The translations under genes were made by a program, and so were the position numbers. DNA of 64,000 nt from an uncultured Acidobacteriota bacterium (GTDB lineage Bacteria; Acidobacteriota; Thermoanaerobaculia; Gp7-AA8), in contig CAWGHO010000003.1 of assembly GCA_963822445.1 (NCBI GenBank), positions 864,001 to 928,000 on the forward strand, in the 5' to 3' direction. This document shows positions 14,561 to 23,826 of the stretch, one piece after another. The notes under the pieces are model-generated. The model worked only from the letters and a program-made list of their open reading frames with translations. It ran no database searches and was not told the DNA's origin. The stretch's first letter is position 1. Every line of letters begins with the position of its first letter.

Positions 14561-15333
<773 letters not shown>

Positions 15334-20072: not shown

Positions 20073-20094
20073 TGCGATGCACAATGCCCCGCCC

Positions 20095-21311
20095 ATGAAC
20101 GTCGACCACATCCGCGCCCAGTTTCCCGCTCTCGAACGCACGCCACAACGGCCATCCCGTCGCGTACTTCGATGCGCCCGGCGGGACGCAGGTGCCGCGC
20201 GTCGTCGCGGAGGCGATGACCGACTATCTCTTTCACCACAACGCCAACACGCACTGGGACTATCCGACCAGCGAGGAGACCGACGCGATCATCAGCGGAG
20301 CGCGAGAAGCCGCGGCGGATCTGCTCGGTGCGTCACCGGACGAGATCGCCTTCGGCGCGAACATGACCACGCTCACCTTCCACCTGGCCCGCGCCCTCGG
20401 CCGGATGTGGTCGGAAGGCGACGAGGTGATCGTGACCGAGCTCGATCATCACGCCAACGTCGCGCCGTGGCGCGCGCTGGAGATCGATCGCGGCATCGAG
20501 GTCCGTTCGCGCGAAGCTGAATTGCGATGGCGGGCAGCTCGATTACGACCACCTCGCGTCGCTGGTCTCGCCGCGGACGAAGCTCATCGCCGTGGGCGGG
20601 GCGTCGAATGCGATCGGAACGATCAACGACCTGCGGCGAGTCGCGCAGATCGCCAAAGCCGCGAACGCGCTGCTGTTCGTCGACGCCGTGCATCTCGTGC
20701 CTCACGAGCTCCTCGACGTGCGCGAGATCGGCTGCGACTTCCTGGCCTGCTCGTCGTACAAGTTCTACGGTCCGCACGAGGGCATCCTCTGGGGACGCTT
20801 CGAGCTACTCGACACCCTGCCGTTTCCGAAGCTGCTGCCGGCGCCGGACACCGCGCCGGAGCGGGTGGAGACGGGAACGCAGAACCACGAAGGCATCGCC
20901 GGAATCACAGCGACGATCGATTTCCTGGCGTCGATCGGCGGAGAGGGCGGCACACGACGCGAACGGCTCGGCCGCGCCTTCGCCGGACTTCACGAAGAAG
21001 GGCAGCGGTTCGCGGCGATGATCTGGGAAGGGCTCAGCGCGTTGCCGCGAGTCCGTGTCTACGGACCGCCTCCCGGTCAGCCGCGCACGCCGACGATCTC
21101 CTTCACGATCGACGGCATGCACGCCGATGACGTGGCCCGCGCGCTTGCCGCCGAAGGTCTGTTCGTGAGCAGCGGCGACTTCTACGCGGCGACTGTCTGC
21201 GAGCGGTACGCGGTGGAGAGTCTGGTGCGGGTCGGATGCGCCTGCTACACGACGGAAAACGACGTGCGCCGGCTCGTTGACGGTGTGGCGCGGATCGCAT
21301 CGGTGCAGTAG
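20095..21311 (+). CDS. cysteine desulfurase-like PLP enzyme (VC1184-type), two apparent frameshifts
   Basis: IRAQFPAL, YFDAPGGTQVP, FGANMTTL, LDHHANVAPW, FVDAVH, CSSYKFYGPH and ETGTQNHEG across three frames. Confidence 0.85.
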
Positions 21312-21323
21312 GATCGACCGGCA

Positions 21324-21935
21324 ATGGCGAAACGCAGACACGAAGAAGTACAGACCTCATCCTCCAAATCGGCGATGACGGGCATGGCCGTGGCCGGACT
21401 GGCCGTGGCGGGGCTCGTCATCTGGGCGCTGACCCGCACCGTGCAGCCCGCCCCGTCGGTCGCGGCGGACATCCCCATCGAACAGACCCAGACCCAGCCC
21501 GCGACGAATACGTTGCCGCCGCTCGAGGGCATGCCGAACCCGAATCAGGCCACCGCTTCGCCTGTCCAGGTCCCGCCGGTGTCCGACGAGAACGCGAGCG
21601 TGAAGCGCATCAGCGTCACTGAACTGCAGTCGAAGGTGAGCGCGAAGCAGGTCACGGTGATCGACGTGCGGGACAAGACGACGTTCATCGCCAGCCACAT
21701 CCCCGGCTCGCTGCACGTGCCGATGGCACAGATCGAGAGCCAGGTGACCTTCCTGCCGAAGGACAAGCCGATCGTCACGTACTGTACGTGACCCAATGAA
21801 GAATCGAGCGCCCGGGCGGCGCTCATCCTGCAGCGGTACGGCTTCACCAACGTTTCGGCTCTCGAAGGCGGATATGACGCGTGGCGCACGGTCGGTGCTC
21901 CGACCGCGCAAGGGGACCCGCCGCCGATTCCTTGA
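21324..21935 (+). CDS. membrane-anchored rhodanese-domain protein with in-frame TGA (probable selenocysteine)
   Basis: VIDVR..HIPGS..IVTYCT-TGA-PNEESSARAALILQRYGFTNVSALEGGYDAW; the rhodanese domain is complete only by reading through TGA 21789-21791. Confidence 0.85.
21806..21824 (+). promoter_or_regulatory. putative bacterial SECIS hairpin
   Basis: GAGCGCC-CGGGC-GGCGCTC: 7-bp stem, 5-nt loop with G at position 2, 21 nt between the UGA and the loop. Confidence 0.65.
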
Positions 21936-21937
21936 TT

Positions 21938-22038
21938 AGTAGGCAGTAGGCAGTGGGCAGTAGGCAGTGGACCGCCACCCACTCCCGTCGTGGTTGGGCG
22001 GCGGCCTCCTGCCTACTGCCCACTGCCTACTGCCCACT
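21938..22038. repeat. heptamer-array palindrome (GTRGGCA / TGCCYAC)
   Basis: agtaggcagtaggcagtgggcagtaggcagtgg ... ctgcctactgcccactgcctactgcccact. Confidence 0.85.
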
Positions 22039-22039
22039 A

Positions 22040-22441
22040 ATGTTCGAGGTCATTCATCACACGGCCGACGTGCGGCTGCGCGTTTCCGCGGCCACGCTCG
22101 AGGAGCTTTTCCGCGATGCCGTCCGCGGGATGTACGCGGTCATGCGCGGCGAAGCTCGCGGCGGCGCACCCGTTCATCGCGTGATCGCCGTCGACGAATC
22201 AGCTGACACGACCGCGCTGCTGGTCGACTTTCTGAACGAGGTCCTCAATCGCGCGCAGATCGGGCAGGAGATGTTCGAGGACGTGCGCTTCACCCGATTC
22301 GAGCCGGAGTCGCTGACCGCGGAGCTGACTGGCACAGCGCCTGCGGAGTTCGAGGAGGATGTGAAGGCGGTGACGTACCACGAAGCAGACGTCTGTCGCG
22401 AGAACGGCGGATGGACGACGATGCTGGTGTTCGACTTATGA
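22040..22441 (+). CDS. archease
   Basis: FEVIHHTADV, LLVDFLNEVL, VKAVTYH and terminal FDL. Confidence 0.92.
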   Translation: MFEVIHHTADVRLRVSAATLEELFRDAVRGMYAVMRGEARGGAPVHRVIAVDESADTTALLVDFLNEVLNRAQIGQEMFEDVRFTRFEPESLTAELTGTAPAEFEEDVKAVTYHEADVCRENGGWTTMLVFDL

Positions 22442-23826
22442 ACAAATCCAACCTCGAGAAAATCAACGACCATCTCTGGGAAGTGCCGAAGAGCTTCCGC
22501 GGCGACATGCGCGTTCCCGCTCGCGTGTACGCGACGGAACAGATGCTCGACGCGATCCTGCGCGACCGCTCGCTCGATCAGCTGGTCAACGTGGCCACGC
22601 TGCCGGGTATCCGCAAGTACGCGATCGCCATGCCGGACGTGCATGAAGGCTACGGCTTTCCGATCGGCGGCGTGGCGGCGGTGGACGCGCAGGACGGCGC
22701 GGTGTCGCCGGGCGGCATCGGCTACGACATCAACTGCGGCGTGCGACTTCTCCGATCGACGAAGACCTTCGACGAGATCCAGCCGCTGCTGCAGAAGCTC
22801 ACGCATTCCTTGGCGCGCGGCGTCCCGTCGGGCGTCGGCCGCGGCGGAAGCGTGCGGCTGAAGAAAGAGGATCTCGATCTGATCCTTCGCGATGGCGCCG
22901 CGCGCGCTGTGGCGATGGGATACGGCGATGCCGAGGATCTGAAGCACATCGAATCAGGCGGCCGTCTCGACGGCGCGGAGCCGAACGAAGTGTCGCAATC
23001 GGCACGCGAGCGCGGAGCCGACCAACTCGGAACGATCGGGTCAGGCAATCACTTCGTGGAGATCGATCGCGTGGACGAGGTGTACGACGTCGAGGAAGCC
23101 GAGCGTCTAGGCATCGTCCGCGGCGGCATCGTCATCCAGATCCACACCGGCTCCCGCGGCCTCGGCCACCAGGTCGCCACCGACTCTCTCCGCGTGATGA
23201 CCAAGACCATGGCCAAATACGGGATCGAGGTCGCCGATCGCGAGCTGGCCTGCGCGCCGCTCAGCTCGGGCGAAGGGAAGCAGTACTTGCGTGCGATGGC
23301 GGCCGCGGCGAATTTCGCATTCGCCAATCGGCAGCTGATCACCGCCGCGATCCGCCGCGCGTGGCTGCACGAGCTGACCGACGATCGCATCGACATCGTT
23401 TACGACGTCGCCCACAACGTCGCGAAGGTGGAGCGCTATCCCGATGTCGGCGAGGTGGTCGTGCACCGCAAAGGCGCGACGCGCGCATTTCCGAACCAGC
23501 CGGTGCTCATCCCCGGCAGCATGGGTACAGCCTCCTACCTCCTTCTCGGACAGGACGGCGCGATGAAACAGAGCTTCGGCTCGAGCTGCCACGGCGCGGG
23601 CCGGACGATGTCCCGAACGAAAGCGCGCACGGAGATCAATGCCGAGGAGTTGAAGGGGCGGCTGAAGAAGCTCGGGATCATCGCCGAGGCCGGATCGTCG
23701 AAGGGGCTCGTGGAAGAGGCGCCCGAGGCGTACAAGGACATCGATGCCGTGGTCGATGTCGTGGCCAAGGCCGGCATCGCGAAGAAGATCGCGAGGTTCA
23801 AGCCCGTGGCGGTGATCAAGGGGTAG
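22438..23826 (+). CDS. rtcB: RtcB-family RNA ligase
   Basis: MPDVHEGYGFPIGG, GYDINCG, GSGNHF, HTGSRG, YDVAHN, HRKGATRAF, PGSMG, HGAGR and EEAPEAYK; ATGA overlap with archease. Confidence 0.96.
   Translation: MNKSNLEKINDHLWEVPKSFRGDMRVPARVYATEQMLDAILRDRSLDQLVNVATLPGIRKYAIAMPDVHEGYGFPIGGVAAVDAQDGAVSPGGIGYDINCGVRLLRSTKTFDEIQPLLQKLTHSLARGVPSGVGRGGSVRLKKEDLDLILRDGAARAVAMGYGDAEDLKHIESGGRLDGAEPNEVSQSARERGADQLGTIGSGNHFVEIDRVDEVYDVEEAERLGIVRGGIVIQIHTGSRGLGHQVATDSLRVMTKTMAKYGIEVADRELACAPLSSGEGKQYLRAMAAAANFAFANRQLITAAIRRAWLHELTDDRIDIVYDVAHNVAKVERYPDVGEVVVHRKGATRAFPNQPVLIPGSMGTASYLLLGQDGAMKQSFGSSCHGAGRTMSRTKARTEINAEELKGRLKKLGIIAEAGSSKGLVEEAPEAYKDIDAVVDVVAKAGIAKKIARFKPVAVIKG

Follow-up and report, generated by a model that had tools for sequence, protein, structure and literature searches.

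A predicted membrane-anchored rhodanese selenoprotein with a C-x-U motif in soil Thermoanaerobaculia

Our analysis of a 64,000-nucleotide stretch of DNA from an uncultured Acidobacteriota bacterium (the window) indicates that an in-frame TGA in a rhodanese gene is very probably read as selenocysteine. Judging from the conservation of the locus among relatives and from the gene content of the host genome, the product would be a full-length, membrane-anchored protein of 203 residues made from a single functional gene. An open reading frame on the + strand starts at ATG 21324 and halts at TGA 21789-21791, after ...KPIVTYCT. Past this codon the frame runs on as PNEESSARAALILQRYGFTNVSALEGGYDAWRTVGAPTAQGDPPPIP, a further 47 codons, to a second TGA at 21935-21937. 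An earlier note on this DNA had described an ORF that ends in IVTYCT at the first TGA and a frame that continues beyond it, and translation confirms this up to the second TGA.

The features of the locus are as follows.

20086..21311, + strand: cysteine desulfurase-like gene (TIGR01976 type), split over three frames, with shifts near 20141-20143 and 20505-20509
21310..21313, + strand: possible ribosome-binding site AGGA, 10 nt 5' of the ATG, as read from the sequence
21324..21937, + strand: predicted complete selenoprotein gene, 203 codons plus the terminal TGA, translated with TGA as U
21369..21434, + strand: predicted membrane anchor, residues 16-37, a single hydrophobic helix (helix in the AlphaFold2 model; best 19-mer Kyte-Doolittle mean 2.03)
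21435..21584, + strand: low-complexity linker rich in Pro, Gln, Thr and Ala, residues 38-87, modelled without secondary structure (pLDDT 55-63)
21585..21934, + strand: rhodanese domain, residues 88-203 (PF00581, 73.3 bits; pLDDT >90; PDB match 3tp9_A)
21783..21785, + strand: TGT, Cys154, the start of the C-x-U motif, invariant in 40 sequences
21789..21791, + strand: in-frame TGA, predicted selenocysteine U156 (TGA/Cys pairing in orthologues; Sec machinery in the genome)
21806..21824, + strand: SECIS-like hairpin GAGCGCC-CGGGC-GGCGCTC, stem 21806-21812 with 21818-21824, loop CGGGC at 21813-21817
21935..21937, + strand: terminal TGA, the true stop by translation; a downstream repeat begins here

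Within the selenoprotein gene the order is thus N-terminal anchor, linker and rhodanese domain, and the in-frame TGA lies in the rhodanese active-site loop, YC-T-U-PNEESS. The Pfam Rhodanese model (PF00581) spans residues 98-188 only in the read-through product (73.3 bits; cut-off 22.2), which places the TGA inside the domain. The MAKxRH N-terminus and the whole length are common to the orthologues. The upstream gene stops at TAG 21309-21311, with which the AGGA overlaps. Inspection of the sequence after the terminal TGA found no hairpin of the SECIS-like kind there.

Comparison within the genus shows how the TGA column behaves. A six-frame search of 40 relatives covered 24 other genomes of the genus, 20 of which have an orthologue (44-53% identity). 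The earlier note had proposed looking for Cys/TGA pairing at the U156 column, and this is the pattern that emerged: 18 of the 20 same-genus orthologues have one in-frame TGA, every one of them in the column YCT-U-P, and the two that have none read YCT-C-P with TGC on extraction and translation. The remaining four genomes gave only weaker, paralogue-level matches; the unpublished genome G002 is among them, and the count rests partly on it. Both genomes with a Cys form (G017 and G004) retain selA, selB and tRNA-Sec, and we therefore regard the Cys forms as Sec-to-Cys or Cys-to-Sec exchanges within a Sec-using genus. Loss of the trait was considered as an origin of the Cys forms and rejected on the same grounds, though selD of G017 has no TGA.

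Codon-position counts provide a second view of the region downstream of the TGA. For these we used the 17 Sec forms that can be aligned without gaps; the two Cys forms were excluded, as was L024, which lacks one residue. In codons +13 to +35 past the TGA, the commonest base has a frequency of 0.81/0.89/0.72 at positions 1/2/3, compared with 0.78/0.85/0.69 upstream of the TGA. The frame past the TGA therefore varies as coding sequence does, and translation must continue beyond it. The 13 codons from the TGA itself to +12 are frozen, at 0.94/0.97/0.97, so that the third-position frequency reaches 0.97 here versus 0.69-0.72 elsewhere. GAA GAA, AGC GCC and GCG GCG CTC are identical in all 17 sequences, and the proteins share just about half of their residues. 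Of 29 sequences, at least 90% have C as the nucleotide right behind the UGA.

With its variable positions masked, an exact 45-nt motif comprising the TGA and the hairpin is present in 32 species-representative genomes, each of which is labelled Thermoanaerobaculia, Acidobacteriota or Acidobacteria. Contigs from public runs are relatives of the window, with each source's share at most 0.13. One such contig from soil (17 differences, 6 gaps) spans 21502-21922, and none of its listed differences falls at 21789-21791; we do not count this as evidence.

At the protein level, we surveyed the best 120 matches from a collection of 5.8 billion proteins. Among these, 76 end in ...[VL][TL]YCT right before the U column and two more in ...TVCT, 39 are full-length with Cys, and three are fragments. 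The motif YC[TSK]CP[AN]EE[ST]S, found in 39 of the 120, agrees with the YCxCPxExSS that the earlier note had remembered for related rhodaneses. In the orthologues and the database matches alike, the counterpart of U156 is Cys and never Trp. In the window itself, the gene was called as a 138-residue piece, residues 18-155. Since most of the best matches end before the U column, gene callers systematically truncate the C-x-U rhodanese family; a 2026 review describes premature truncation of selenoproteins by gene callers in general terms (PMC13188914).

The host has the means to insert selenocysteine. We searched its genome (three contigs, 94.7% complete) for the Sec machinery, as the earlier note had suggested for selA, selB, selC and selD, and all four are present, each exceeding its curated cut-off. 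SelA scores 488.6 bits, and SelB is full length (368.6 bits, model positions 2-577 of 581). The tRNA-Sec scores 71.1 bits and is called by ARAGORN as SeC with anticodon tca. SelD scores 371 bits, and its gene has a TGA of its own in the motif TTGGU-ACK (GGU-ACK), the known Sec/Cys position of SelD. With the unpublished G002 included, selD lies above the cut-off in 34 of 35 genus genomes, and the TGA is present in 33 of those 34. The host selD (G000:C2:1710833-1711771, L001) is thus itself a selenoprotein gene; selD of G017 carries no such stop.

SelB-dependent recoding also calls for a hairpin, and the one described in the earlier note is there in the sequence at 21806-21824. It begins 15 nt past the UGA, inside the coding region; its loop is separated from the UGA by 21 nt and has G as its second base. 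The bacterial SECIS consensus of Zhang and Gladyshev from 2005 reportedly places the loop 16-37 nt after the UGA, with a G in the first two loop positions, and the geometry seen here fits that consensus. The hairpin alone has a folding energy of -12.4 kcal/mol. When a 71-nt stretch was compared with shuffled sequences, its folding energy gave no signal (z -0.15; 91 of 200 shuffles fold as well), and for this reason folding energy is not used as support. A comparable hairpin at that distance occurs at about 2% of positions and after 42 of the 1687 TGA triplets in the window (2.5%). By itself the hairpin is weak evidence, being unremarkable for such G+C-rich DNA. Its significance rests on comparative data, namely that TGA and hairpin are kept together in orthologues and that the hairpin is missing from Cys forms.

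For this comparison the set of hairpins was widened with paralogues of the same order and class and with loci of other phyla found with a Cys-substituted query, and loci found by DNA pattern were excluded. At least six of the seven stem pairs are present at the same offset in 33 of 38 distinct Sec-form 48-mers, and all seven in 24. Among 56 Cys forms with the same protein motif, six stem pairs are found in two and seven in none. In an alignment of 29 sequences, 88.4% of the cells are paired, versus 28.5-48.6% when the partners are slid. Changes on both sides of the stem are rare: they occur in three of the 11 pairs counted, one in each, and the covariation score is 0.103 compared to 0.088 in shuffles, with 29 of 500 shuffles scoring as high. 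RNAalifold retains only four pairs, with a covariation term of -0.09. The covariation is weak because the stem hardly varies. Three forms fused to DedA fit the hairpin only with a bulge, which the ungapped alignment scores as unpaired. A scan of 21200-22100 against Rfam at E <= 1 matched no SECIS family; the bacterial SECIS models in Rfam cover few lineages.

Taken together, what speaks for a SECIS function of this hairpin, as read from the aligned sequences, is that its position is fixed, that synonymous sites are frozen and that Cys forms lack it, rather than any compensatory changes. The fit to a bacterial SECIS proposed in the earlier note thus holds for the spacing, the loop G and the retention in Sec but not Cys forms, and finds no backing in Rfam and little in covariation. 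Its broader proposal of a CxU selenoprotein is supported by the TGA/Cys pairing, the Sec machinery and the same division of the hairpin between Sec and Cys forms.

The loop differs somewhat among the Sec forms. Here it is CGGGC, within codons for Ala-Arg-Ala, versus GGTGC in 31 of 52 distinct Sec forms, for example the same-genus orthologues. Only two other Sec forms share CGGGC, and the CGTGC and CGTGT loops of 16 forms are close to it. The loop in the window thus resembles the CGTGC and CGGGC loops found in paralogues and in forms from other phyla.

These observations bear on the ways in which the TGA could be something other than a selenocysteine codon. If a Cys codon had turned into a stop by chance in one genome, as in a pseudogene or through an assembly error, this would have taken a single substitution (TGC to TGA), and the two 1-nt frame shifts in the neighbouring gene indicate that either the assembly or the locus is not flawless. 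This explanation is next to negligible, however, given the same TGA in 18 other species of the genus, the exact TGA-plus-hairpin motif of 45 nt in 32 species-representative genomes, and the conserved downstream frame. It is also highly improbable that the UGA is read through without the Sec system, whether by a near-cognate tRNA-Trp or tRNA-Cys or through a lineage-specific reassignment of TGA. A UGA followed by C is a leaky context, which at least 90% of the sequences share, and the Rfam result would be in keeping with such read-through. But TGA also terminates this very gene at 21935-21937, the column pairs with Cys and never Trp, and the genome has a complete Sec machinery, with a selD that uses TGA at its known Sec position. 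Moreover, a hairpin at fixed distance and frozen synonymous sites are what SelB-dependent recoding needs.

The TGA could instead be a genuine stop, in which case the main product would be a 155-residue N-terminal fragment with the anchor, the linker and half a rhodanese domain, and Sec insertion would be minor or selenium-dependent. In bacteria Sec insertion does compete with termination, and the 76 of the best 120 database matches that end right before the U column would be consistent with such a product. However, a half domain without the catalytic loop cannot fold as modelled, protein-level constraint extends past the TGA in 17 species, and the Cys-form orthologues make the full-length protein. 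We consider a genuine stop very unlikely, and return below to the selenocysteine reading and its 203-residue product.

For the AlphaFold2 model of the predicted protein, 40 sequences were used and U was replaced by C. Its rhodanese domain, residues 88-200, is modelled with confidence (pLDDT >90); in it, strand 150-153 leads into loop 154-159 (C-T-U-P-N-E) and then helix 160-171. The best PDB match is 3tp9_A (Z 19.4, rmsd 1.0 Å over 106 residues), and GlpE (1gmx) matches with Z 16.4. No variation is seen in the 40-sequence alignment at C154, C/U156, P157, E159, E160 or S162. In an active rhodanese the nucleophile is expected where the loop begins, just past the central strand and ahead of the next helix. 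C154 takes the place of the catalytic Cys when the protein is aligned to 3tp9, to BH2092 (3nhv, 3o3w) or to a paralogue with a single Cys from its own genome, whereas a gapless HMMER alignment to 6mxv pairs U156, not C154, with its catalytic-position Cys. The secondary structure of the model favors C154 at the canonical catalytic position, while the alignments conflict between C154 and U156. The same genome also encodes two Cys-form paralogues (G000:C2:1495794-1496159 and G000:C3:1261059-1261292; L123, L124), in which the motif takes a C-x-C version, YCACDAEQSS and YCTCKSEETS.

The model and all examined relatives show the N-terminal anchor and the Pro/Gln-rich linker anticipated by the earlier note; the linker varies in length and sequence among orthologues. 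In 53 of 59 relatives the 15 residues preceding the helix contain more K plus R than the 15 that follow it, and paralogues at 34-46% identity have N-termini that resemble cleavable signals or lipoprotein signals. The positive-inside rule predicts the orientation of membrane helices. Based on this rule and on the paralogues with signal or lipoprotein peptides, the rhodanese domain probably faces the periplasm on a flexible tether.

Selenoproteins of the rhodanese kind are known. In the Sargasso Sea study, a rhodanese-related sulfurtransferase appears in a table of the new selenoprotein families (PMC1088965). In two reviews, the C-x-U form is listed as ‘COG0607 form 2’ (PMC9312934) and as ‘form 3, NF041203’ (PMC13188914), and both attribute it to the bSECISearch paper. 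The best NCBIfam match of our protein is indeed NF041203 (rhodanese_LYCAU, ‘rhodanese-related (seleno)protein’), at 86.9 bits, or 80.9 bits in the genome scan, and it does not reach the equivalog cut-off of 115 bits. NF041203 is also the best match of 14 other C-x-U modules, at 73.0-102.7 bits, all below 115. One of the 151 genomes of the phylum that were sampled has a member above the cut-off (118.5 bits, loop IVTFCTUPNEGTSARVA).

The protein in the window resembles the NF041203 kind in its C-x-U motif (loop YCTUPNEESSARAA, compared to FCTUPNEGTSARVA in that member), in its single rhodanese domain and in the existence of Sec and Cys forms. It differs in that the 126-position profile matches residues 88-194 only, and our protein has in addition an N-terminal membrane helix and an approximately 50-residue linker. 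It differs further in its conserved TIGR01976-type neighbour, which is not seen within 4 kb in 78 distant relatives. We file it as a divergent relative of the NF041203 kind because it misses the equivalog threshold but shares the defining motif.

Other rhodaneses are more distant. GlpE (1gmx), PspE (2jtq) and the 3tp9 domain have the same fold, with the catalytic-loop Cys after the central strand, but have a single catalytic Cys, whereas our protein has an invariant C-x-U/C, a Pro and two acidic residues in the loop. PspE is periplasmic. Typical thiosulfate sulfurtransferases have basic active-site loops, in contrast to the acidic loop seen here (E159, E160). TsoB (NF045694), a rhodanese/DsbD fusion with UxxxxU, is matched with 26.7 bits against a cut-off of 805. 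Forms 1, 2 and 4 of the rhodanese selenoproteins (UxxS, UxxG), as given in PMC13188914, likewise have Sec at the active-site loop but differ in motif and Sec position. A full-text literature search, assessed by title and abstract, found no paper on a rhodanese selenoprotein of Acidobacteriota. From its sequence, we assign the protein to a divergent, membrane-anchored Thermoanaerobaculia clade of the known CxU rhodanese selenoproteins.

The C-x-U module with TGA and hairpin is also found in larger proteins. DedA-like membrane proteins of Terriglobia, Bryobacteraceae and Thermoanaerobaculia carry it as their C-terminal domain, and it ends cation/proton-antiporter-like proteins in MAGs labelled Chloroflexota (fused-form loci L046, L050, L053, L057, L172-L174; L101, L104). 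Gene callers would truncate each of these long ORFs.

Upstream of the selenoprotein gene, 12 nt separate the end of the cysteine desulfurase-like gene from the start codon, and the C-terminal 239 aa of its product match NCBIfam TIGR01976 with 233 bits. A gene of this type is the immediate upstream neighbour at 17 of the 18 informative loci with orthologues, beside Cys and Sec forms alike, and is also upstream in two Thermoanaerobaculia loci from the Cys-substituted search; it is not found within 4 kb of the other 78, more distant relatives. Twelve of the orthologues are intact (389-427 aa as called), and they carry a nearly invariant VGC-x-CYTT near the C-terminus, a second C-x-C pair in the gene unit. 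A soil contig that is about 91% alike has one base fewer at 20143 and at 20509, which indicates that the window carries two 1-nt insertions, either assembly errors or real decay. The earlier note had held that the other apparent errors in the window are indels; for this gene, the one checked, both shifts are indeed of 1 nt. A predicted complex between a Cys-form rhodanese domain and the desulfurase-like neighbour scored 0.00 in a run without controls, which gives no verdict either way. A metatranscriptome contig bridges 21216-21355, the junction of both genes, and shows neither transcription nor a single transcript.

Downstream on the + strand (22040-23826) lie an archease-like ORF and then an RtcB RNA ligase family gene, which overlap by about 30 nt. 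This pair follows the rhodanese gene in five of 19 other loci, and we therefore do not regard its adjacency as conserved. Between them and the rhodanese gene, an inverted repeat of 7-nt units (GTAGGCA/GTGGGCA) occupies 21936-22040, starting at the stop codon of the gene, and occurs also at 15238-15267. A 16-mer of the repeat has eight occurrences in the window, with none expected by chance. Soil metagenome contigs pile up on the repeat, with a summed depth of 1107 versus tens alongside, and it is on this basis probably a multi-copy repeat or terminator element. On the repeat, the Rfam scan of 21200-22100 at E <= 1 returned sub-threshold miRNA-hairpin matches only.

How might such a protein be made, and what might it do? 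We propose that the UGA at 21789-21791 would be recoded to selenocysteine by the cell's SelA/SelB/SelC/SelD system, with SelB-dependent recoding directed by the mRNA hairpin that starts 15 nt past it. The product would have a short positive N-terminus, a membrane helix, a disordered tether rich in Pro, Thr and Gln, and a rhodanese domain with C154-T-U156-P-N-E-E-S-S. This domain could act as a transferase of sulfane sulfur (or selenium) or as a thiol-selenol redox module, in which one of C154 and U156 would carry a persulfide-type adduct and the other would resolve it via a selenenylsulfide. The protein may share a pathway with the conserved desulfurase-like gene upstream. The biochemical role of the domain is inferred, and what ties it to the desulfurase-like gene is conserved adjacency. 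A simple persulfide relay between the two is made less likely by the acidic loop and by their predicted location in opposite compartments: a periplasmic rhodanese domain could not touch a cytoplasmic desulfurase directly.

A more speculative model, which we think rather unlikely, is that the two genes form a dedicated sulfur/selenium module of soil Thermoanaerobaculia. In it, a desulfurase-like (possibly selenocysteine-lyase-like) enzyme would be combined with a tethered, outward-facing C-x-U rhodanese that does non-classical chemistry. If this were true, the Sec/Cys pair in its acidic loop might reduce or shuttle sulfane sulfur or selenium species at the membrane, and the C-x-U modules fused to DedA-like or antiporter-like proteins might point to a broader class, so far undescribed, of selenol redox sensors or carriers associated with membranes.

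The finding reveals no new principle and is modestly new, in the anchored Thermoanaerobaculia clade, the conserved pairing with a desulfurase-like gene and the systematic truncation in public gene calls. The natural pair of Sec forms with the hairpin and Cys forms without it is useful for studying how a SECIS constrains coding sequence. Our results also suggest that the annotation rule of NF041203 be widened to anchored and fused forms. For about two thirds of the closest database entries, the public gene call ends at the UGA. What those calls present as a truncated rhodanese becomes, by our prediction, a full-length selenoprotein that is spread over a clade of soil Acidobacteriota.
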